Assembly (NCBI GenBank): GCA_963820525.1
Contig: CAWGAA010000002.1
Location: 492,568 to 556,567 of the forward strand
DNA: 64,000 nucleotides
Origin: an uncultured Spirochaetota bacterium
Lineage (GTDB): Bacteria > Spirochaetota > Spirochaetia > SZUA-6 > Fen-1364
Reading direction: 5' to 3'
Position numbers and translations under genes: made by a program. Under the pieces are notes generated by a model that had not been told where the DNA came from, ran no database searches, and saw only the letters and a program-made list of their open reading frames with translations. Of this stretch, positions 41,973-53,165 are shown one piece after another (positions within the stretch are counted from its first letter, which is position 1; each line of letters starts with the position of its first letter).

Positions 41973-43219
41973 ACGGCAGGGAGGATAAAACGCGGCTCCT
42001 GGAATCCGATGGAATGGGCTTTTCAGTCGGAGAGAAGCGCATTCTGCATGATGTGAGCTTCAGCCTGGGGAGGGGAGAGCTTGTCGGCGTCATCGGGCCG
42101 AATGGGGCGGGGAAGACCACGCTCCTGCGCCTCGCGAGCGGGCTGCTTCCTCCTTCCTCCGGCAGCGTCTCTTTTTCGGGAGAGAAGCTCGCCGCCCTGC
42201 GCCCGCGCACGAGGGCGCGTCTTGTATCCTTCATGAGCCAGGACATACCACAAGAGATCTCTTTCTCCGTGCTCGAGGTCGTGCTCATGGGGCGCTATCC
42301 CCACCTCGCCCGGTTCCAGAGGGAATCCGCCGAAGACATCGAGAAGGCGCGCCGCATGCTCGCCTACGTCGGGCTATCCGGCTTCGAGGAAAGGCCCTTC
42401 GGCGAGCTTTCAGGGGGCGAGCGGCAGCTGGCGCTCTTCGCCCGCGTCCTGGCGCAGGAGGCGGAGCTTGTCGTGCTCGACGAGCCGAGCTCGCACCTGG
42501 ACTTGCGTCATGAAGACGCAATCTTCTCCATGGCCCAGGAGCTCGCGCGGGAAGGCCGGGGGGTGCTCGCCTCCGTGCACAACCTCAACGTCGCCTCCCA
42601 CTACTGCGGGCGCTTGATTCTACTGGACAGGGGCATGGTCGCCGCAGCTGGAAAGGCCGAGGAGGTGCTCGCGCCGGCGCTCCTCCAGCGGGTCTATGGG
42701 GTGAAGGCCATTGTGTCGAGAAGCGCGGCCACGGGAAGCGTCATGGTGAGCGTTGTGCCCTTGCGAGTGGAGGGCAGGGGCGTCCGCATTCACCTCATCG
42801 GCGGGGCGGGCTCCGCCGTGAACCTCACGCGCGAGCTCTACCGTCTGGGATTCGCTCTGACCGGCGGAATCGCTCACGCCCGAGACTCGGATGAAGCGCT
42901 GTGGAAGAGCCTGGGGATAGAGTGCTTCTCCGTGGACGCGTTCTCACGGATCTCGGATCGCGATGTCGAGCACGCGGCCGCCCGTGTCGAAGCGGCGGAG
43001 CTGGTAATCCTGTGCGCTTTTCCCATAGGGTTAGCAAACGTGGCAAACCTGAGGCTCGCCGCGCGGGCCCGCCGGCTCGTCATTCTGGAGCCGGGCCCCG
43101 GTGACCTGCAAAGGAGCTATTTCACGGACGACGCAAGCCGACTTTTCGAAGCGCTTGGAAAGTCCGCGGAAACGAGGAAGCAGAACGAGCTGGTTTCAGA
43201 GCTTGTCGGCGGCGCGTAG
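41969..43219 (+). CDS. BtuD/FecE-type ABC ATPase with C-terminal extension
   Basis: GPNGAGKTT, LSGGERQ, LDEP; extra domain IHLIGGAGSA. Confidence 0.9.
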   Translation: MNGREDKTRLLESDGMGFSVGEKRILHDVSFSLGRGELVGVIGPNGAGKTTLLRLASGLLPPSSGSVSFSGEKLAALRPRTRARLVSFMSQDIPQEISFSVLEVVLMGRYPHLARFQRESAEDIEKARRMLAYVGLSGFEERPFGELSGGERQLALFARVLAQEAELVVLDEPSSHLDLRHEDAIFSMAQELAREGRGVLASVHNLNVASHYCGRLILLDRGMVAAAGKAEEVLAPALLQRVYGVKAIVSRSAATGSVMVSVVPLRVEGRGVRIHLIGGAGSAVNLTRELYRLGFALTGGIAHARDSDEALWKSLGIECFSVDAFSRISDRDVEHAAARVEAAELVILCAFPIGLANVANLRLAARARRLVILEPGPGDLQRSYFTDDASRLFEALGKSAETRKQNELVSELVGGA

Positions 43220-43310
43220 CAGGCCCGCTAGCGGCGACCCGCTTGCAGCTTGCCCGGGACGGCGCGGAGCGGCGCCCCGCTTGCCACATCGGTTTTGTCA
43301 CAAGACAGGC

Positions 43311-43367
43311 TGCCGGAGACGGGACTTGAACCCGTACAGCCCTTGCGGGCCGGGGGATTTTAAGTCC
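43311..43367 (-). repeat. att site: 57-bp exact copy of the tRNA-Leu 3' portion
   Basis: TGCCGGAGACGGGACTTGAACCCGTACAGCCCTTGCGGGCCGGGGGATTTTAAGTCC is identical to 51946-52002. Confidence 0.95.
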
Positions 43368-43547
43368 GTTTTCAATTCCCCACGCGCATACCCCTATTTA
43401 CTTATGTATACTATTGATATAGAATTAACGCAGTAGGATAAATCGTGGTATGTCTAAAAAGATGAGAATAGAAAAGGTTCTTCTCAGAAATCATCTCATT
43501 TTTCCAGGTATTAAGAGGTAGAGAATCAAGCAATAAGGGCGAGAAAT

Positions 43548-45674
43548 ATGATGAAACTCAAGAGGTTTCAAGTAACCGGCTTCCGATCAGTTAGCGATAG
43601 CGGCCCAATCGAGACCGATGACGTGACGGCGCTTATCGGAACGAATGAAGCGGGCAAAACCAACATTCTTCTGCCGCTCTGGAAATTAAGTCCTGCAAAG
43701 GAAGGCGAGATCGTGCCTACCGCGGACTACCCGAGAAAACTCTACAACATTCTTAGAAACCAAAAGCCGAAACCTGTGTTCATAAAAGCCGTATTCGAGG
43801 CTGATGACGCGGTCGCACAAGAGCTTTCGGCCAAGACTGGGATGCCAAAAGACGCCATGAGCGAGATAGAGGTTTCCCGCCGTTTCGATACTGAGTACGA
43901 AGTGGATTTTCCGAACGCCAATCCGCTCCGATCGATCAACACAGAAAGGGCCGCAACGATCATTCAGGGCGGAGAGAGGGAAATCGCTGCCATGGCAGCG
44001 GTCGAGGGTGAGAGCGATCTCAAGACGCTCATCGTGACCTCCCTTCGCACTGCGAAGGAGTCTTTTGGCAACAAGACTGAGGTCAACGCGGCCGATCTGG
44101 ACAGTGCTCTTGCCGTTATGGGGGGCGTGAAGATCGACGCCGCTCCAGCAACAAGCACTATTGCGCCTAGATTTCGCCAAGTGCAAGAGCAGATCGGCGA
44201 ATTGCGAAAAGGAATTTCTCGGCCTCACCCGCGAGAAGTCGATGCTGCTGTGAAGATCGTTCTAAAGAACATGCCCAAGTTCGTATATTACTCAACGTAC
44301 GGAAACCTGGATTCCGAAATCTATCTTCCCCATGTGATCGCAAACCTCAAGCGGTCTGACTTGGGCTTAAAGGAACAAGCCAAGGCAAGGACACTTAAAG
44401 TGCTTTTCGAGTTCGTGAAACTCCAACCGGAGGAGATCCTTGAATTGGGCCAAGATTTCAAGGTTACGAACCGTCAGCCCACGGAAGCCGAGATAGCAGC
44501 GATCGCCGAAAAAAAGAAACAAAGGAGCATCCTACTTCAATCCGCCTCAACTCTCCTAACTACTCAGTTTCGAGAATGGTGGAAGCAGGGGGAATACAGA
44601 TTCAGGTTCGAAGCGGATGGTGACCACTTCCGGATCTGGGTCTCGGATGATAAGCGGCCGGAGGAGATTGAACTCGAGGGCCGCAGTACAGGGCTTCAGT
44701 GGTTCCTGAGTTTCTACCTCGTCTTTCTGGTTGAAAGGGCGGATGCCCATGAGCAGGCCATCCTCTTGTTGGATGAACCAGGACTGTCCCTACATCCACT
44801 CGCACAACGCGATCTTTCGCAATTCTTCAATGGGCTCGCGAGCGACAACCAACTCATATACACGTGCCACTCGCCATTCTTGGTCGATGCTGACCGCCTG
44901 GATCGGGCGCGAAAGGTGTATGTTGGCAACGACGGCACTAGCAAGGTCACTCCTGATCTGAGAGCATCTGACGATCCGCCAGGGCAACGGGGTGCTGCAT
45001 ACGCAGTTCACGCTGCACTAGGGCTGAGTGTAGCCGAGAGTTTACTTCTTGGATGCGAGCCCGTTGTAGTGGAAGGTCAATCAGATCAGCACTACCTCAC
45101 TGCAATCAAGAACCTTCTCATAGCCGCAGGCCGGTTAAAGCCCGGGCGAGAGCTAGTATTTCCGCCTGCGGGGGGTGTCAAGGGAGTAAAGGCGGTTGTG
45201 AGTATTCTCGGAGGGCGAGACGAAGAGCTGCCCGTTGCTCTATTTGATAGCGATGAACAGGGCCATGCTACGGCGCAAGCGCTTCGAATAGGTCTCTACA
45301 CTGCCTGTCCAGAACTGGTGTTGGAAATGAAGGACTATGCGGGGTTCGAACATGCTGAGGTGGAGGACTTGATCCCACCCGAGGTGATAGCTCGGCAGCT
45401 TGATCGTTGGCAGCGAGGCGCGGAAAAGCCATTTTCTGAGACGGTGAGACAAGGGGAACCCATTGTTGCTCAAATTGAGGCGTGGGCGAAGAACAACCGT
45501 GTCACCCTTGAAGTCCCAGGTTGGAAGGTCGAGCTCTCAATTCGGGTCAAGCGGCAGATGCTATCTGACGGGCCAGCGGCCATTAAGGCTGAAGTTGCGG
45601 ATAAATGGGTGAAGTTATTCGAGACGTTTCGGGATTCTCGGGCAACTGCCCGGGAGCGACAGGCGGGAGAGTGA
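43548..45674 (+). CDS. OLD-like ABC-ATPase + TOPRIM nuclease
   Basis: FRSV, Walker A GTNEAGKT, signature RSTGLQW, Walker B LLLDEPGLSLHP, H-loop TCHSPF; TOPRIM VVEGQSD and LFDSD. Confidence 0.85.
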   Translation: MMKLKRFQVTGFRSVSDSGPIETDDVTALIGTNEAGKTNILLPLWKLSPAKEGEIVPTADYPRKLYNILRNQKPKPVFIKAVFEADDAVAQELSAKTGMPKDAMSEIEVSRRFDTEYEVDFPNANPLRSINTERAATIIQGGEREIAAMAAVEGESDLKTLIVTSLRTAKESFGNKTEVNAADLDSALAVMGGVKIDAAPATSTIAPRFRQVQEQIGELRKGISRPHPREVDAAVKIVLKNMPKFVYYSTYGNLDSEIYLPHVIANLKRSDLGLKEQAKARTLKVLFEFVKLQPEEILELGQDFKVTNRQPTEAEIAAIAEKKKQRSILLQSASTLLTTQFREWWKQGEYRFRFEADGDHFRIWVSDDKRPEEIELEGRSTGLQWFLSFYLVFLVERADAHEQAILLLDEPGLSLHPLAQRDLSQFFNGLASDNQLIYTCHSPFLVDADRLDRARKVYVGNDGTSKVTPDLRASDDPPGQRGAAYAVHAALGLSVAESLLLGCEPVVVEGQSDQHYLTAIKNLLIAAGRLKPGRELVFPPAGGVKGVKAVVSILGGRDEELPVALFDSDEQGHATAQALRIGLYTACPELVLEMKDYAGFEHAEVEDLIPPEVIARQLDRWQRGAEKPFSETVRQGEPIVAQIEAWAKNNRVTLEVPGWKVELSIRVKRQMLSDGPAAIKAEVADKWVKLFETFRDSRATARERQAGE

Positions 45675-45699
45675 CCGCCCTTAGAATAGGAGCAAGTCT

Positions 45700-45990
45700 A
45701 TGCCAACTTCGGTGAGGAACGTAGCAGGAACCGCAGATCTTTCCTGCAAATGCGGTTCGTGGATCAAGCATTGGGAGAGAGGATCTGGCAAGAGCGCTCT
45801 TGGATGTGGAGTTGTCGGATGTACCGGTCCTGCTGAAGTTGGCGCGCATGTCACGAAGGTGGGATCTCAAGACAGGGGCAGGTACATAGTGCCGATGTGC
45901 ACAACCCACAATTTCTACACTTCTATGGACTTATCGATCAAGGACAGCGTGCCACTCATTTCGGTCAATTGGCAGAATACTTGCGCGTGA
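45700..45990 (+). CDS. 96-aa Cys/His-rich protein, possibly HNH/His-Me-finger-like
   Basis: RBS AGGAG; CKC..W..HW, CGVVGC, GAHV, IVPMCTTHN. Confidence 0.75.
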   Translation: MPTSVRNVAGTADLSCKCGSWIKHWERGSGKSALGCGVVGCTGPAEVGAHVTKVGSQDRGRYIVPMCTTHNFYTSMDLSIKDSVPLISVNWQNTCA

Positions 45991-46308
45991 GGATCCTGTG
46001 GCGGGAATCGCACTCGCCACCTCACAGAGATTGAGACGCACTTTCGCCAACACCTGCGCGGTTTCCCGCCTCAGCGATCTCCTCAAGGGGTAATCGCCCG
46101 CCGAAGGCCTCCGATAGCACGCCTGCCACCTGAACCGCCCCGGCCTCGGCATGAGCACTGCCAGGGGAAGGCCTGCTCCATCATGAAGGAGGCGGACCGT
46201 GCGGTTCATCAATTCGCCGCCCATGCCTGAGCTTCCGCCCGATTGAGCTGCATGAGCAGCCGTGGCCGGGGAGCGTGCCCGCCATCCCGGATGGCCACCA
46301 GGAGCCAA

Positions 46309-46881
46309 GGGCTTTATAAAGGTGAACTACGAGCAACCGAAAAGCATTTAGCGAAAGGTGCGCTAATGTATTTCGTTCGCCTTCAGATGGCACATCTCAC
46401 TGAAGGAATGAAGGTTCTTCAACAGCTTGAAACTGTTCCCAGTTTTAAAAGAGTCTTTTCTTCCTGTCGCTCATCTGCGCAAGAAGCATATAAGCGTTTA
46501 ATACCTTTCACTCAACCAGGACCAGAAAAAACGTGGTTCGATAATAATGTCGCTACTACGCGTAGTAACTTGACTTTTCACTATCATGAATCAGGAAAAT
46601 GGATAAACTGGGCATTAGCAGATAGGGCTTCCAGAGCAGTGGCAGAGCGATCATCAATAACATACGGTGATCACGGACATCTCTGGCGTTTCCATATTGC
46701 AGACAATATTCTTGATAGTATTATGTGTCGTAAAATCTGGAAAATACCCAAATCATCTGATGTACAGAAAGAAGCAGATATAGTAATCAGCAAAATCTAT
46801 AATATCTATCGCAACTTTATCAACTTTGCATTAGTATTTATGTTAGAATATTTGAAGCAGACTATTGTAGCCTTGAAATAA
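46309..46881 (+). CDS. 5'-truncated cassette gene, HEPN-like (R-x5-H)
   Basis: AT-rich part of ORF 46243-46881; RSNLTFHY motif in a helical protein; followed by an attC-like site. The 5' boundary is approximate, set by the GC shift. Confidence 0.55.
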   Translation, partial: GLYKGELRATEKHLAKGALMYFVRLQMAHLTEGMKVLQQLETVPSFKRVFSSCRSSAQEAYKRLIPFTQPGPEKTWFDNNVATTRSNLTFHYHESGKWINWALADRASRAVAERSSITYGDHGHLWRFHIADNILDSIMCRKIWKIPKSSDVQKEADIVISKIYNIYRNFINFALVFMLEYLKQTIVALK

Positions 46882-46888
46882 TCTTGGC

Positions 46889-47003
46889 GTCTAGCATGCT
46901 GTTGGAGTGACAGAATAGGCTGTCGCCGTGACTTATAGTTACATGAGTTATGACCTTTTGTACTTAGATGATTCGGGGCGGCAACTCAACAGCGTCGTTG
47001 CAC
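46889..47003 (+). repeat. attC-like site 1
   Basis: R'' GTCTAGC, L'' GCTGTTGGAGT, L' GCAACTCAACAGC, R' GTTGCAC; arms complementary with an extra G. Confidence 0.8.
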
Positions 47004-47053
47004 GCATTTAGACAAGGTGATGTAATACTCCAGTATCATGCGGGAGGTTATGA

Positions 47054-47953
47054 ATGAACAATAGATTCGATGAAGTAAAAGAACATCTCAGGAAACTTTC
47101 AATAATCAAAGAAGCACTGCAAGCTCTTATCCATTTCAACGAAGAGGCAATAAGTTCTTTGTCGTGGCAGAATCGGTTCCTGGGTAATAGTTTGATAAGC
47201 ACATCCTTCGCGATCGATCTATATGGCTCTCTTGTTGAACCAAAAGTGAATGAGATGTCGGAAACTGACTTCAGAGGGATGATGAATCCACTATCGAACA
47301 TGGTCCGGTTTGGAACTACGTTCATCACGCTCCATAGAACAAAAGACGTAAAGAGCTACTTGCAGACATTTGAGGCAACTGCAAGCGGTGGCTCAGCAGT
47401 TTTCTCAGCATCAGTGGCAGATAGCACTGTCAATTTCATTGGATTTACACACCCCCAAGAACCGGAGAGAGCTAGAATTCAAGGTCTGCTTGAAACATAC
47501 TTCAGCCAGCTGAAACCAGAAGAAGACATTAGGTATATTGAAGAAAGGCTTCCGAAGATTCTCCCAAACGTTGCTGAAGACTTCAAGCACTTCCTTGCCA
47601 ATTACTACGCGTCAAAGCAGAATGAACTCAAGTATCAGGAACTGATTGCATTCAGAACCATCTTTTTTATGAAACTAGTCGAGGAATTTGCGAAATTGCA
47701 TGGATGTCCAGATTCTGTATCACGGAAAGAGAAGATTACGTTTTTTGCATTCAAATCTTCGAAAACCACCGACCCCAATGCAGAGAAAATAGCCGAGGCC
47801 GCATTCTCTTTATGGAAAACGCTATCTACTCAAGATAGCTCGGCTTTAAGCGTAAAGATGGGAAACGTCACCGCCAGTTATATCGATTTGCTATTTCACA
47901 ATGTTCTTATCGTGGCAGCTACGCTCCTAAGGCAAAATGAGAACTATTGGTAA
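47054..47953 (+). CDS. Cassette-encoded hypothetical protein (299 aa)
   Basis: RBS GGAGG; AT-rich ORF exactly filling the space between attC-like sites 1 and 2. Confidence 0.8.
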   Translation: MNNRFDEVKEHLRKLSIIKEALQALIHFNEEAISSLSWQNRFLGNSLISTSFAIDLYGSLVEPKVNEMSETDFRGMMNPLSNMVRFGTTFITLHRTKDVKSYLQTFEATASGGSAVFSASVADSTVNFIGFTHPQEPERARIQGLLETYFSQLKPEEDIRYIEERLPKILPNVAEDFKHFLANYYASKQNELKYQELIAFRTIFFMKLVEEFAKLHGCPDSVSRKEKITFFAFKSSKTTDPNAEKIAEAAFSLWKTLSTQDSSALSVKMGNVTASYIDLLFHNVLIVAATLLRQNENYW

Positions 47954-47968
47954 TATGAACACAAATGC

Positions 47969-48064
47969 GTGTAACATGCGATTGGAGTTGTTCGCCAAGT
48001 CTACGCGTGTTGAATCATTTACACATAGATGATTCGGGGCGGCAACTCATCAGCTTCGTTAGGT
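47969..48064 (+). repeat. attC-like site 2
   Basis: R'' GTGTAAC ... R' GTTAGGT; shares TAGATGATTCGGGGCGGCAACTCA with site 1. Confidence 0.85.
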
Positions 48065-48077
48065 GGTCATAGATTCA

Positions 48078-49085
48078 ATGACATTCGCCCAGCTGATAAA
48101 CCGTATCCGCACTGAGACCAGATACAAGTCCTGTTTCGTTAGTGATTCCTCTTGCTCAACAAGAATAGTTAGGTCGCATTCCATTCAGAATTCTCGGATA
48201 CTTAGGCGTATTTCCTTGAACGGCATGGTCTTAACTATTCAAGCATCAGATCGGATACTCGGCTTTTCTTCCGTTGGCCGCAAGACCGCATCGACCTTTT
48301 CGGGATTCTGCTCGTTTCACGACGATAAGATTTTCAAACTGATAGAGACCGACGATTTCTCTCCTATTGATGCCCACTTCGTACGGCACGCTTACAGGGC
48401 ACTCGCTCTTGAATACAACAAAAAAACTTCAATCCTCAGAATGTACACTAAAATTCTTGAGTTGATGGAAACAAAACAATGGCAGAGATACCTTCGTGAC
48501 TGCACAGATATAAAACCTTCGCGCGCAAGTCCCGCCGAAACTTACAGAGATGTCGTTTCATACATTACTGGATCTCAGATTGAACTCGACAATATGAATA
48601 GGTTCCGAGCGCTGTTCGATGTTTTCTTTGAGACCTCCCACAACGACTTCTTGTCTTCCTTCTCAGTATCCTTTCCCTCTGAGTATCCCATCGCTGCCAC
48701 ATCGTCGATAACGATTGAGCATGACTTTCGAGGTAACCCAGTAAACGTTTTCCCTAAATCGGACATCTGCGATGAATCGAAACCGCTCTATCTAACTATT
48801 TTTCCACAAAACGGGCGTACACATGTTCTCCTCTCTCACTATGAAAGGGACCGCGACACCTACCGACCTTTAAGAAATGATCTGAAGAGTATGCGCATTA
48901 GAGATCTGAAGGTTGCAGTGACAAATTTGATTGCAAATCACATTGAGAACTTCTATGTCTCACCGGTTTATTGGAAGAGACTGGACGAACAAACAAAAGT
49001 CCATTTTCTCGAGGTTTTTCGGCAAACGCTTTTTTTCGCTGGGAGCGACTTGGCTCAACTTAAAGATATCAATATCTTCGTCTGA
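48078..49085 (+). CDS. Cassette-encoded protein with Zn/HNH-like N-terminus
   Basis: C-x6-C, SHSIQ, ASTFSGFCSFHD motifs; lies between attC-like sites 2 and 3. Confidence 0.7.
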   Translation: MTFAQLINRIRTETRYKSCFVSDSSCSTRIVRSHSIQNSRILRRISLNGMVLTIQASDRILGFSSVGRKTASTFSGFCSFHDDKIFKLIETDDFSPIDAHFVRHAYRALALEYNKKTSILRMYTKILELMETKQWQRYLRDCTDIKPSRASPAETYRDVVSYITGSQIELDNMNRFRALFDVFFETSHNDFLSSFSVSFPSEYPIAATSSITIEHDFRGNPVNVFPKSDICDESKPLYLTIFPQNGRTHVLLSHYERDRDTYRPLRNDLKSMRIRDLKVAVTNLIANHIENFYVSPVYWKRLDEQTKVHFLEVFRQTLFFAGSDLAQLKDINIFV

Positions 49086-49087
49086 CC

Positions 49088-49114
49088 GTCTAGCATGCTG
49101 TTGGAGTTGACCGC
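49088..49114 (+). repeat. attC-like site 3, left arm only
   Basis: GTCTAGCATGCTGTTGGAGTTGACCGC is near-identical to the site 1 left arm; no matching right arm found. Confidence 0.7.
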
Positions 49115-49386
49115 TTAAGCTACCTGTCTTTAGGCCGCCCTTGACCAGTCGGGCTCGGAGCTAAAGTTTCAATGAGTTTCGATTTGCATGGAATGCTCTG
49201 ATTGAGTTGTTTAGAAGACAGATATAGAAGGTGTATCAATCTGGAGTTCCCCCGATTTCGTGGACACCCTGAATTGCACCTGCGTCTCGGTTTCGGGGGG
49301 GTATCCAAACACCACCTGCCTTCCGAAAACGCAACCACGGCCCTCTACGCGCAAGGCTTTTTCCTCACTCTGGCTTGGATCGTCAA

Positions 49387-50256
49387 TCATGCCGTCTTCC
49401 GCTCCTCGAGCTCCTCATATTCGGTCGGTGTGAGGTAGCCGAGGTACGAGTGAAGCCGCTTGCGATTATAGAAGATCTCCACGTATTCGAATATTGCTCT
49501 CCTGGCCTCCTCTCTGCTTCGGTAGATCTTGTCCCGAATCAACTCTGCTCTCAAGGTCTTGAAAAACGTCTCCGCGCACGCGTTGTCCCAACAGTCGCCC
49601 TTACGGCTCATGCTTTGAATGAATCCGTGCCCTTTGGCAAACTTTTCAAACTGACCGCTGGTATACTGCACACCGCGATCGGAATGAAACAACAGTCCCC
49701 GCGGCGGGCGGCGACGAATCGCGGCCATGACTACCGCCGTCAGCACCAGCTCGGCACTCAGCTCGCAGCTCAGCGACCAGCCCGCCACTCGACGTGAGTA
49801 CAGATCCAGTACGATGCATAAATACATCCACCCTTCGGCTGTCGCAACGTAGGTTATGTCGGACACCCACACGCGATTCGCCGCGGAGGCTTCGAAGTTC
49901 CTGTTCACTATGTTTTCGGCCACTTCCTGGCCGTCTTTCGAGTGCGTGGTCACTACAAACCGCCTCTTCGGCTGCGGCCCAAGGGCATTCTCTCTCATGA
50001 TTCGGGCAACTCGGTTCTTCCCCACATGCCGCCCACGCCTCAGCAGTTCTTCCCGCATGCGCGGGCTTCCGTAGCTGTGACGCACCTCGCCCTGGATCTT
50101 CCGGATCTGCTCGATCAGCTCCTTCTCCTCGAGTGCTCGTGCACTCTCTTTACCGTCGAGCCAGGCATAGTACCCACTGCGCGCTACTCCCAATACTTCC
50201 GCCATCTTCTCCACGCCGTGGGTTCCCCGCTGTTTACTCATGATCTGGTACTTCAT
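49387..50256 (-). CDS. IS3 transposase OrfB (DDE)
   Basis: YGSPR, WVSDITY, FHSDRGVQY, DNACAETFF. Confidence 0.95.
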   Translation of the reverse strand: MKYQIMSKQRGTHGVEKMAEVLGVARSGYYAWLDGKESARALEEKELIEQIRKIQGEVRHSYGSPRMREELLRRGRHVGKNRVARIMRENALGPQPKRRFVVTTHSKDGQEVAENIVNRNFEASAANRVWVSDITYVATAEGWMYLCIVLDLYSRRVAGWSLSCELSAELVLTAVVMAAIRRRPPRGLLFHSDRGVQYTSGQFEKFAKGHGFIQSMSRKGDCWDNACAETFFKTLRAELIRDKIYRSREEARRAIFEYVEIFYNRKRLHSYLGYLTPTEYEELEERKTA

Positions 50257-50543
50257 CTCGGGGGTCTGGAGAAGATGGCTGTTGCTTTTCTTAGGATGTC
50301 CCGTTCCTCACGCAACTCCTTGTTCTCTTTGCGCAAGGCGGCCAATTCCTCGTCACGGGACCTGCCGTTGCCTGGGAAAGCTCGTGTCCCGTCCTCACTG
50401 AATTGCTTCCTCCAGCGGTAGATCTGTCCGCTGCCGATTCCCAGATCCCGTTCAATCTCATGTCCCGGCTTTGTCCCTGACTCCAGGAGCCGGATGGCAT
50501 CGAGCTTGAACTCTTTGGTGTATTTCTTCCTCGTGTCTGCCAT
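50253..50543 (-). CDS. IS3 OrfA (HTH)
   Basis: KYTKEFKLDAI, YRWRKQ, EERDILRKA; ATGA overlap with orfB. Confidence 0.95.
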   Translation of the reverse strand: MADTRKKYTKEFKLDAIRLLESGTKPGHEIERDLGIGSGQIYRWRKQFSEDGTRAFPGNGRSRDEELAALRKENKELREERDILRKATAIFSRPPR

Positions 50544-50813
50544 TGCCTTTCCTTACCCCTCTAAAATACTGCTTAACCATGTGTCTATGAAATCGGGGTA
50601 GGTCCAATCTCTACCTTGGCAGCTGAAGATCAAGAGATATTAAAGACAAATAGTGACTTTTATGTCGTGTTCTCTCTGCTATCTTTGGCTACGGTCGCAT
50701 CCTCAGCATATGCGATGTCTACATGGAACGCAACCTTTCAATTCTTCGGCTTGCATTCTAGCCCTTTCTTCCACTAAACTCAACAATTATCAGAAAGCAA
50801 GGAGGAAACGTTT

Positions 50814-51803
50814 ATGTCTAAAGGCGTGATTGACAGACCTATTCTTGAAACCCCCATCGCGATCATCGACTTCGAGACAACGGGGCTTGCACCTGGGCCA
50901 GACCGCGTCGTGGAAGTCTCCGTGGTCCGTGCTGAACCTGGAAAGGAGCCTGTTCTTGTTCTCGATACGCTAATCAATCCTGATCGCCCTATGGCAGCCA
51001 CGGAAATCCATGGAATTACAGATCGTGATGTTGTTGACGCTCCCAGGTTTTTCGAGATAGGCGGCGACTTTATTAGGGCGATCTCTGGCTGTGTTGTTGC
51101 TTCCTATAATGTCTATTTCGATATTGGCTTTCTTACCTATGAGCTTCGTAAAATTAGAGTTGCTTGCGTGCCGCCCCATGTTTGTCTTATGTATTTAAGG
51201 CCACTACTTGAAATGGGAAAACGCTGCTCCCTATTTACAGCTTGCTGTGAGTCAGGGATCCCGCTTCCTCATGCTCACCAATCCGCCGCTGACGCATTCG
51301 CGTCAGCACAACTTTGGAAAATATATCTGAGTGCCATGGAAGAGCATGGGATGCAGAAGTTCAAGGATCTTTCCCAAAAAAAACAATACAAATTTCTTAA
51401 TAGTCTTGAAGCGGATCCGCTATCACCGCCAACCGAAGCTGAAATGCCCCATCTGGCCAACGTAAAATCACGTTCTGTGAAGATGCAACAAGAGTATCAT
51501 AGAGGCGGAGCTCAGCCGCCCACACAAACAGTTGACAGGCATGATGTTATCCACCGTTACTGGAGTGAGCTCACCACAGTCCTCTCAGATTTAGAACTTA
51601 CTCGTGATGAAGCCAATGGACTCGCCAAGCTGAGGAATCAACTGAAGTTGACACAAGAAGAAATCAAAGGAATGCATGCTCGCGTTTTTGCGGATCTTCT
51701 ACTTCTTACGATCGAAGACAGAATCATAAGCGCTGACGAACAAAACCAGATTCAGCGCCTCTATAGGTGCCTCGCGAAGCTCGGATGGGCACCGGGACAG
51801 TAA
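50814..51803 (+). CDS. DEDDh 3'-5' exonuclease with C-terminal TerB-like helical repeats
   Basis: IDFETTG, YNVYFD, HQSAADA; tail repeats SDLELTRDE / EDRIISADE; RBS AGGAGG. Confidence 0.85.
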   Translation: MSKGVIDRPILETPIAIIDFETTGLAPGPDRVVEVSVVRAEPGKEPVLVLDTLINPDRPMAATEIHGITDRDVVDAPRFFEIGGDFIRAISGCVVASYNVYFDIGFLTYELRKIRVACVPPHVCLMYLRPLLEMGKRCSLFTACCESGIPLPHAHQSAADAFASAQLWKIYLSAMEEHGMQKFKDLSQKKQYKFLNSLEADPLSPPTEAEMPHLANVKSRSVKMQQEYHRGGAQPPTQTVDRHDVIHRYWSELTTVLSDLELTRDEANGLAKLRNQLKLTQEEIKGMHARVFADLLLLTIEDRIISADEQNQIQRLYRCLAKLGWAPGQ

Positions 51804-51945
51804 AAGCCATAGTTATCTCCGTACGTGCATCCCAGTCGTCAAAGTAGGCTTGAGAGATTCACTGTCGATCGATTGACCCTATCGTTGCACTAAATCTGGC
51901 GTTTATGTGATGCGGAGGAGCGACTTTATATTATAAAGAATTGTA

Positions 51946-52031
51946 TGCCGGAGACGGGACTTGAACCCGTACAGCCCTTGCGGGCCGGGGGATTTTAAGT
52001 CCCCTGTGTCTCCCAATTCCACCACTCCGGC
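51946..52031 (-). tRNA. tRNA-Leu (anticodon TAA), 86 nt, CCA not encoded
   Basis: Acceptor stem GCCGGAG/CTCCGGC, D-loop GG, anticodon arm GGGGA-CTTAAAA-TCCCC, long variable arm, GGTTCAAGTCC. Confidence 0.96.
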
Positions 52032-52120
52032 GCATGGACGTGCAAGGGCGGCCGAGACAAGGATGTCGGAAGGCCGCCCCGACGCATGGACGTGCGCGTG
52101 CGCTGCAAGCCAAGGATGGC
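52031..52120 (+). repeat. Cluster of four short hairpins with ANGGAN loops
   Basis: CGC-ATGGAC-GTG (52031 and 52083), GAC-AAGGAT-GTC (52056), GCC-AAGGAT-GGC (52109); outer stem GGGCGGCC/GGCCGCCC. Confidence 0.6.
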
Positions 52121-52346
52121 GGTCTGCGGTGGCCCGGCGCATTCAACTGATTGCAGTAAAGAGAGTTAGCCGCCCGCCAATTCCTCCAACGTCATGTAGT
52201 CTTCCATCGGTTCATCAATGTGTCAAGCTTCCTATTGCAGAATCTTGTGATCAAGGATTCATGCCCCACAGAAAGTCTTACCCTATATGTGATTATAGTA
52301 TATACCCAATGTAGCTACATGATACGGGGGCAACGGGAGGAATGCG

Positions 52347-53165
52347 ATGGCAATAAAGGGTGAATGGATTCGCTACGAGGATCAGACAGGCTACTTTGCG
52401 GTGCCCGACCGCGCGGCGGAGCCGCTGCCCGCTGTCGTGGTCATCCAGGAAGTCATGGGGGTGAACGAGCATATCGAGGACGTGACCCGCCGCATCGCGG
52501 CGGCCGGCTATGCGGCCCTTGCTCCGGATCTTTTCGCGGTCGGGGGGGCGCGACCGGCGCCTCTCACGCGGGAGCGGATCGCGGAGAGCATGGCTTTCGG
52601 CGCCAGGCTCCCTCCTGGCGCGGCGTTTGACCCGGCCAGGAGGCAGGAGGCGCTTGCGAAGCTTCCCGAGGCGGAGCGGATTCGAATAAGCGAGACGTAC
52701 CAGCAGATGTTCGGGTCTGCCGCGCCGGGGCGGATGGAAACCCTGGTGGCCCCTTTGAAAACCGCCGTTCGCCACCTGCTCACGCGGCAAAAAGAAACAC
52801 GCGGGCAGAGGGTCGGCTGCGTGGGCTTCTGCATGGGAGGCGGGCTTTCAGCTCTCCTGGCCTGTGAAGAAGAGGATCTCTCCTGCGCCGCCGTCTATTA
52901 CGGAAACACGCCTGCCCCCGAGAAGATCGCAAAGGTCCATTGCCCGGTCATCGCCTTCTACGGCGCCGCTGACCAGCGGGTCAACGCGGGCATTCCCACT
53001 TTCCAGGAAGGGATGAAAAAGGCAGGCAAACCTTGCGAGCATCACATCTATGAAGGAGCCGGCCACGCGTTTTTCAATGACTCTGCGCCTTCGTATAACG
53101 TGAAGGCGGCCAGGGATTCCTTTTCGAGACTGCTTGCCTTCCTCCTGAAGAACCTCAGCGGGTAG
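52347..53165 (+). CDS. Dienelactone hydrolase family protein
   Basis: VIQEVMG, GFCMGG nucleophile, GAGHAF. Confidence 0.92.
   Translation: MAIKGEWIRYEDQTGYFAVPDRAAEPLPAVVVIQEVMGVNEHIEDVTRRIAAAGYAALAPDLFAVGGARPAPLTRERIAESMAFGARLPPGAAFDPARRQEALAKLPEAERIRISETYQQMFGSAAPGRMETLVAPLKTAVRHLLTRQKETRGQRVGCVGFCMGGGLSALLACEEEDLSCAAVYYGNTPAPEKIAKVHCPVIAFYGAADQRVNAGIPTFQEGMKKAGKPCEHHIYEGAGHAFFNDSAPSYNVKAARDSFSRLLAFLLKNLSG

Follow-up and report, generated by a model that had tools for sequence, protein, structure and literature searches.

Nucleases of the OLD family are divided into classes by their genetic context, and in the review that defines this scheme Class 1 is the single-gene class (PMC10568477). 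Further reports describe nicking of DNA and a block of phage replication by the Class 1 enzyme Vc OLD of Vibrio cholerae (PMC12392090), severing of tRNA anticodon stems by P2 Old (PMC12445682), and ATPase-dependent phenotypes of E. coli YbjD/OldB (PMC13261556). Class 2 comprises Gabija (GajA plus the UvrD-like GajB), Class 3 the retron-linked OLD proteins, and Class 4 PARIS (AriA plus AriB). Septu is a pair of an ATPase, PtuA, and an HNH nuclease, PtuB. The subject of this study is an OLD-family gene from an uncultured Spirochaetota bacterium that is followed closely by a gene for a 96-amino-acid (aa) Cys/His protein, both lying in a 64,000-nucleotide (nt) stretch of contig CAWGAA010000002.1 (positions 492,568 to 556,567) which was analyzed as a whole and is called the window here. 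A first-pass annotation, made from the sequence alone, had proposed that the two genes form a defense system of a new architecture, OLD plus mini-HNH. We instead favor, with a probability of roughly 0.7, a stand-alone Class 1 OLD gene beside an independent small-gene neighbor. The features that bear directly on this question, in window coordinates, are as follows.

43548..45674, plus strand: gene for an OLD-family ABC-ATPase/TOPRIM nuclease, 708 aa, assigned from family hits and motifs; no conserved neighbor in 80 homolog loci
45675..45699, plus strand: 25-nt spacer with AGGAG at 45688-45692, 7 nt ahead of the small-gene ATG; no terminator-like site
45700..45990, plus strand: gene for the 96-aa Cys/His protein, a member of a large unannotated stand-alone family of ~95 aa; predicted to bind zinc, with a ββα element (HNH-like, unproven)

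The OLD gene ends in a TGA stop codon at 45672-45674, and the database copy of its product (P0004) has 707 aa, starting at the second ATG. Pfam matched the protein to AAA_15 (6e-21) and AAA_21 (6.8e-15), and the top PADLOC model was Old (1.4e-22), spanning residues 398-555, followed by the AriA, AbiLi, and GajA models. The ATPase motifs are a Walker A motif (GTNEAGKT, residues 31-38), a signature-like STGLQW at 380, a Walker B motif (LLLDEPG at 406), and an H-loop (TCHSP at 439), while the TOPRIM motifs are VVEGQSD at 507 and LFDSDEQG at 565. Across an alignment of 43 sequences, D409, E410, H441, E509, G510, D567, and D569 were invariant, and K37 was at least 90% conserved. The only clear solved relative was the OLD protein of Thermus scotoductus (Ts OLD, PDB 6p74), found at 3.1e-8, or at 1.2e-9 with a profile, and this alignment sets VVEG of the window protein on LVEG. 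The Pfam OLD-like_TOPRIM model matched neither the protein nor its C-terminal 239 aa by themselves. Profile alignment with hhalign placed residues 361-540 onto residues 251-418 of the Old-type protein encoded at another locus, L113, reaching the Pfam-defined TOPRIM domain of that protein (Prob 87.8, E 3.3e-6); the DxD region falls outside every alignment in these TOPRIM comparisons. The TOPRIM assignment of the C terminus, a prediction, thus rests on the motifs, on the PADLOC Old hit together with the alignment to Ts OLD, and on the hhalign match to the L113 protein. The first-pass annotation had called this an ABC-ATPase/TOPRIM protein with intact catalytic motifs, and Pfam, PADLOC, 6p74, the invariant residues, and the hhalign comparison agree with it; at the level of sequence, an OLD-family ATPase with TOPRIM acidic motifs is supported.

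Relatives of the OLD protein numbered 4,481 at E<=1e-10, and the best 120 of them were 58-100% identical, full length, and ~700 aa long. Sequence comparison places it in a distinct OLD subfamily that is unusually well conserved, at this level of identity, across many phyla, and it is mainly for this strong conservation that the subfamily is notable. The closest relative, P0005 (89% identity), was found to be missing its first 38 residues, including Walker A, and to carry 16 unrelated residues at its start; it may be a decaying copy, or its start may have been mis-called.

The genomic context of the OLD gene was compared across 80 homolog loci from genomes of many phyla, each with 4-kb flanks, at least 6 of which end within ~250 nt of the OLD stop codon and are uninformative. 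The genes downstream of OLD vary between these loci. In an all-against-all comparison of the open reading frames (ORFs), no ORF family outside the OLD gene was present in more than 4 of the 80 loci, and a six-frame profile search found the small family in none of them. The absence of the small gene from all 80 loci, together with the lack of a recurrent neighbor, therefore identifies the window gene as a Class 1 OLD, and its context follows the single-gene pattern of that class. The small family was not found in five genomes with OLD homologs, nor was it detected at E<=1e-8 in any of the 401 genomes of a Pseudomonadota sample. In P0005, which is encoded on a 38.8-kb contig, the C terminus is intact, and a collection of 5.8 billion proteins held no small-protein homolog above 74% identity; judging from this protein look-up, the P0005 locus apparently lacks the small gene.

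Among the described systems, the window OLD most resembles the Class 1 proteins P2 Old, Ts OLD, Vc OLD, and YbjD/OldB in being without a conserved partner and in lying on mobile DNA. It differs from Ts OLD in length (708 aa against 528 aa), and the similarity between the two is low (E of 3e-8) and confined to the ATPase C terminus and the start of the TOPRIM domain. P2 Old has 586 aa. Gabija shares the ATPase-TOPRIM family, with the GajA models matching at 5e-11 to 1e-8 and a GajA structure at 6.6e-4, but the PADLOC Old model scores better than every GajA model, and no gene for a UvrD/PcrA-type helicase is present in the island that carries the window OLD or recurs beside the 80 OLD homologs. 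The AriA model of PARIS matches the ATPase part (4.5e-21); in PARIS, however, ATPase and TOPRIM are split, whereas in the window they are fused in one 708-aa ORF. Unlike the retron-linked OLD systems, the island has no reverse transcriptase gene or retron RNA. The first-pass annotation had likewise reported the absence of a helicase and a reverse transcriptase, correctly: Pfam found no such domain in the island ORFs, and Rfam found only tRNA in 42500-52500. Septu resembles the window pair in concept, with an ABC-type ATPase gene ahead of one for an HNH nuclease (putative in the window), and PtuA matches weakly (2e-10 in PADLOC, 2.8e-4 among structures). The large protein of the window nevertheless has its own predicted TOPRIM nuclease, and this is not a Septu system, since PADLOC has no model, PtuB included, that matches the small protein and since the pair is not conserved. 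The window OLD is thus of Class 1 and not of Class 2, 3, or 4. In term searches of the open-access literature, no paper turned up that describes a pairing of OLD with a Cys/His protein of ~95 aa.

On the stand-alone reading, if correct, Class 1, whose biology is only now emerging, gains one more horizontally mobile member. By homology, ATP binding or hydrolysis by the ABC-type ATPase would gate the C-terminal TOPRIM two-metal nuclease, which would cut nucleic acid during phage infection, either by DNA nicking, as Vc OLD does, or by cleavage of tRNA anticodon stems, as P2 Old does. The gene would have been acquired horizontally on an 8.6-kb island, now free of an integrase, at the 3' end of a tRNA-Leu gene, and the small gene would most likely be co-resident island cargo with an activity of its own, binding or cleavage of nucleic acid.

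The small ORF had been noted to begin 25 nt after OLD with its own AGGAG, and the coordinates and the spacer sequence are exactly so; the two genes are probably co-transcribed. Sequencing runs X1-X3, all from one study, contain identical pieces and may be the source sample itself, and one piece of 407 nt spans the end of OLD and the small gene; run X4, which belongs to a different study, covers no more than the 3' part of the small gene and a further 64 nt. Neither set is independent support for the arrangement.

Could the 96-aa ORF be a chance open frame and no gene? It is short and has no Pfam family, and no family for it was found in NCBIfam or PADLOC. A word-based search of the 5.8-billion-protein collection returned just three relatives, with 74, 56, and 50% identity. 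A profile search of 1.84 billion representatives, by contrast, returned 1,938 matches at E<=1e-3, 842 of them at E<=1e-10. Among 79 aligned members, C16, W21, C36, G48, and C67 were invariant, and C18, H24, W25, C41, H50, V51, P65, and C95 were conserved in at least 90%. AlphaFold2, run on the family alignment, gave a confident model, with a predicted local distance difference test score (pLDDT) of 88 and a predicted template modeling score (pTM) of 0.76, and the ribosome-binding site is at a proper spacing. The small ORF is a real gene because of the profile matches, the residue conservation, and the confident model, and the likelihood of a chance frame is close to nil. Its family, with ~1,900 clusters at 50% identity, is annotated in no library searched, and the ESM Atlas matches were clusters named only "hypothetical protein." Lengths among the best 150 matches were nearly all 90-140 aa, and none exceeded 236 aa; the longer members are tandem duplications or carry unannotated extensions.

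The CxC, CxxxxC, GAHV, and PMCxxHN motifs noted earlier were all located in the 96-aa translation, as CKC at 16-18, CGVVGC at 36-41, GAHV at 48-51, and PMCTTHN at 65-71. The residue at position 70 is either His or Cys, which suits a zinc ligand, and the next one is N71, invariant in 4 close homologs and the consensus residue in the 79-member alignment. In the AlphaFold2 model, a strand at 47-53, a strand at 61-66, and a helix at 68-72 are predicted to form a β-β-α element bearing H50 and C67xxH70-N71. As predicted, this element resembles that of the small zinc-stabilized HNH/ββα-Me endonucleases (phage HNH enzymes, P1 Ref, and restriction enzymes such as Hpy99I), with a His that closes strand one and a CxxH/C-N motif with which the helix opens. 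HNH domains carry a [CxxC]2 zinc site according to PMC3592412, and the Cys pairs of the small protein are placed alike. The small protein differs from these enzymes in having only ~95 aa, in having an extra site made of an N-terminal CxC, a His, and a C-terminal Cys, in the lack of the His and Asn in some members, and in the lack of any significant sequence, profile, or fold match to them. Foldseek searches with the model returned nothing at E<=0.001 in PDB or BFVD, and the best E value of a profile search of PDB was 0.44; in all, a confidently predicted fold had no significant structural match in the three libraries searched. An hhalign comparison of the family with a bona fide HNH family aligned 17 columns and set C67, H70, and N71 onto CxxCH, a sensible register, but with a Prob of 0.8%. 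Pfam detected no HNH domain in the 79 members, with RecA_dep_nuc below threshold in 6 of them (best E of 0.0063), and PHROG HNH families matched 3 of the 79 weakly. A weak Pfam match to TT_ORF2-like (50 of the 79 members, best 0.0018) was set aside, as it covers only the CxC-x5-H stretch, a shared zinc-knuckle pattern.

As to the zinc-bound ββα-metal fold suggested in the first-pass annotation, the modeled β-β-α element and the alternation of His and Cys at position 70 speak for it, while the Foldseek searches and the comparison with HNH gave no significant match; such a fold is plausible for the small protein but unproven. The protein would most likely bind two zinc ions, one at C36/C41/C67/H70 around the ββα element and the other at C16/C18/H24/C95, joining the termini. 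It would bind or cut nucleic acid by itself, and its role beside OLD would probably be incidental or at most auxiliary. In the tandem two- and three-domain members P0124 and P0125 (also P0126 and P0127), the conserved His is replaced by Lys, Arg, or Val and the Asn by Ala; these may be inactive, binding-only derivatives.

Co-occurrence was also examined from the side of the small gene, using the best 80 of 218 metagenome loci with relatives of it (69 distinct proteins). An orthologous OLD gene was found in only one of these 80, L082, where it lies upstream of the small gene and is 75.4% identical over its last 171 residues; the small protein of this locus is the closest relative of that of the window, at 74%. 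The gap between the two genes is 117 nt in L082 and 25 nt in the window. In L082 the small gene is followed by a convergent gene for a tyrosine recombinase. In the phylum of the window, the small family was present in 21 of 400 other genomes, and the window's OLD was within 1.5 kb of the small gene in none of these 21 loci. Hence a general OLD plus mini-HNH architecture, as first proposed, is not supported: the pair was seen in 0 of 80 OLD loci, 1 of 80 metagenome loci, and 0 of 21 phylum loci. Homologs of the two genes mostly do not occur together, the outcome that the first-pass annotation had named as refuting its proposal; the pair is retained in a narrow clade made up of the window and L082, at ~75% identity. 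A tree of 91 distinct small proteins placed the window and L082 as a supported pair whose nearest relatives, L083 and L098, are without OLD, and on the same tree OLD adjacency amounts to three separate changes.

The other contexts of the small gene are varied. Of its immediate neighbors, 79 of 105 have no Pfam family, and 5 of 105 match PADLOC at E<=1e-8. The remaining neighbors include an Eco57I-type methylase, an AbiU2 HEPN protein, ThsB and CAP12 TIR proteins, Schlafen, DUF6119, HNH, an integrase, RepA, an S24 repressor (four times), and metabolic genes, and housekeeping contexts were seen beside IleRS/PadR and GrpE. In genus g42 of the window's phylum (L187-L192), the small gene is preceded by one for an M.TaqI/Eco57I-like methylase of 400-514 aa that includes a TaqI_C domain, and is followed by variable cargo, namely, Gabija (L187), a RES-domain gene (L189), a STAND NTPase (L190), a NACHT-like gene (L191), or a type IIG enzyme (L192), in what looks like a defense hotspot. 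At L085 an Eco57I-type methylase gene comes directly after the small gene. A functional link of the small family to gamma-class N6-adenine methylases is possible. In four related metagenome loci (L119, L120/L122, L128, and L132), the small gene lies next to, and diverges from, a gene for an S24 (LexA/CI-like) peptidase-repressor of ~210 aa. Viral contigs yielded one locus only, L186, in which a major capsid/Mu gpT-like gene and a lambda-type portal gene flank the small gene, itself encoded on the opposite strand. The family also occurs on plasmids and in phage records, where it is named only "hypothetical." By its genomic contexts, which range from defense islands (beside restriction-modification and TIR genes) through mobile elements and one region of phage head genes to housekeeping loci, the small family appears to be separate from OLD and independent of it. 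It recurs beside restriction-modification, TIR, and OLD genes and so makes a reasonable candidate for a functional screen, though it is not evidence for a new OLD architecture.

Several observations nevertheless weigh against a stand-alone OLD gene with an unrelated neighbor. The two genes share one strand, are 25 nt apart, and have no site between them in a terminator scan, and the small gene has its own ribosome-binding site. Their GC contents (0.537 for OLD, 0.522 for the small gene) and GC contents at third codon positions (0.574 and 0.557) are common to both and unlike those of their surroundings, with GC of 0.42-0.44 in the adjacent cassettes and 0.60-0.65 in the host flanks. L082 shows the same gene order at similar levels of divergence (OLD 75.4%, small protein 74%), and the pair has therefore persisted under purifying selection. 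Genes of the small family abut other OLD-family genes as well: that of L113 adjoins an unrelated Old-type gene of 585 aa, 38 nt downstream, beyond which lies a type III restriction-modification system, and that of L187 is directly beside the Gabija locus, whose OLD-family gene is also unrelated. Adjacency to OLD, seen three times across some 90 distinct loci, exceeds a naive genome-wide rate, although all three cases are in defense islands, in which genes of this kind cluster. Moreover, 23 of the 80 small-family metagenome contigs are shorter than 2 kb, and the absence of the small gene beside P0005 is drawn from a database look-up, not from DNA. The shared strand and composition, the retention in L082, and the adjacencies in L113 and L187 would all suit a lineage-specific two-gene system, in which the OLD of the window and L082 has recruited a mini zinc/HNH-like protein as an effector, sensor adaptor, or regulator and defense needs both; Septu, as an ATPase-HNH pair, offers a precedent. 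We consider such a system unlikely, given that the small gene is in none of the 80 OLD loci, that the OLD family has no conserved neighbor, and that P0005, its closest relative, apparently does without the small gene. The gap is 117 nt in L082 against 25 nt in the window, so that the coupling is not conserved, and both loci may stem from a single island, in which case their likeness is identity by descent and not independent support. At L187 the small gene is fixed beside the methylase, and Gabija is one of several alternative cargos; most loci of the small family have no ATPase neighbor at all.

The scattered contexts of the small gene, including the housekeeping loci, its presence on plasmids and in phage records, and the inverted copy between the capsid and portal genes of L186 raise another explanation, namely that it is a free-standing selfish (homing-type) or otherwise autonomous gene for a mini HNH nuclease that inserts between unrelated genes, its place after OLD being incidental. 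The different neighbors of the close relatives L113 and L085 point the same way, a predicted ββα element with a conserved His and Asn would fit a nuclease, and the weak PHROG HNH and RecA_dep_nuc matches (3 and 6 of the 79 members) tend in this direction. Homology to HNH was, however, significant in no test, a protein of 95 aa has no separate DNA-recognition domain, the tandem members lack the putative catalytic His and Asn, and a single viral contig carries the gene; we therefore rate this account as possible though on the unlikely side. Quite improbable, in our estimation, is a broader proposal in which the ~95-aa family is an undescribed, widespread minimal zinc/ββα nuclease-like module of defense islands that plugs into ATPase- and methylase-based systems and that in the window and L082 is the second component of a Class 1-type OLD; if true, this would be an OLD plus mini-HNH system outside OLD Classes 1-4. 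For the stand-alone Class 1 OLD that we prefer, the small protein is probably not an obligate subunit.

The island that carries both genes, and its remaining features, can be set out as follows.

43311..43367, minus strand: 57-nt direct repeat that duplicates the 3' portion of tRNA-Leu, 100% identical to 51946-52002; left island end (att remnant)
45991..46242, no strand assigned: GC-rich (0.65, host-like) segment of 252 nt, non-coding in appearance and unique in the genome, from the small gene to the first cassette ORF
46243..47003, plus strand: integron-type cassette with an ORF of up to 212 aa (no family match) and an attC-like site at 46888-47003
47054..48066, plus strand: integron-type cassette with a 299-aa ORF (no family match) and an attC-like site at 47968-48066
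48063..49130, plus strand: integron-type cassette with a 340-aa ORF (no family match) and a partial attC-like site from 49087
49242..50606, minus strand: IS3-family insertion sequence with orfA (50253-50543), orfB (49387-50256), and 26-nt inverted repeats at its ends; Pfam HTH_Tnp_1 and rve
50814..51803, plus strand: DEDDh 3'-5' exonuclease, 329 aa, at the tRNA-proximal island end; RNase_T 1.3e-18, PADLOC PDC-S48 6.8e-58
51946..52031, minus strand: intact tRNA-Leu(taa), the integration target and right island end; ARAGORN, Rfam tRNA 56.2 bits

The island is 8.6 kb long and has a GC content of 0.42-0.55, compared with ~0.62 outside. Of five relatives examined, two (G806 and G809) have an empty site, where the left flank passes through the tRNA gene directly into the right flank; the window's OLD gene was not found in any of the 24 remaining genomes of the family. 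The low GC content, the 57-nt tRNA repeat, the empty site in the two relatives, and the absence of OLD from the 24 genomes mark the island as an insertion at the 3' end of tRNA-Leu. No integrase gene was found in it. Two others of the five relatives, G810 (locus L197) and G811 (locus L198), have another insert at the same tRNA-Leu, and the first 137-140 nt of these inserts resemble the start of the window island at 72-75% identity, which suggests a family of islands using this tRNA-Leu att site. The GC-rich segment at 45991-46242 was considered as a remnant of the integrase gene downstream of the small gene in L082, and this was rejected, the match being one of 15 nt only. A minus-strand ORF overlapping the segment (45931-46308) had no Pfam match. 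PDC-S48, matched by the exonuclease at the other end of the island, is a candidate defense family of PADLOC, and the exonuclease has a C-terminal extension.

Between these lie the three cassettes, whose 212-, 299-, and 340-aa ORFs had no match in Pfam, PADLOC, or NCBIfam. Each ORF is followed by an imperfect-palindrome attC-like repeat whose outer stems pair. A 22-nt attC core, allowing up to 3 mismatches, was found in 82 copies, all in one orientation, over ~140 kb outside the window (C1:683842-823546), while a reversed control pattern gave 0. One further copy was found at C1:1959418, and the island of the window has another two (46967-46988 and 48028-48049). Just before the first copy of the array (span from C1:682089) is a gene for a divergent 410-aa tyrosine recombinase (Phage_integrase 1.5e-42, Phage_int_SAM_4 7.3e-24). 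With 82 attC cores in the same orientation beside a recombinase, the genome therefore has a chromosomal integron of ~140 kb, from which, by the sequence of its attC-like sites, the window island appears to have borrowed its cassettes. The likeness of the island to integron cassettes, or to clusters of attC sites lacking integron integrases (CALIN), lies in the three ORFs with attC-like repeats. OLD and the small gene are neighbors of these cassettes but not demonstrable cassettes themselves: they differ from them in GC content and have no attC-like site before or between them, none being visible in 43368-43547 or 45675-45699 and the first being that at 46888. The unannotated small family and this very large integron are by-products more intriguing than the OLD gene itself. 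The third attC-like repeat of the island looks truncated ahead of the IS3 element.

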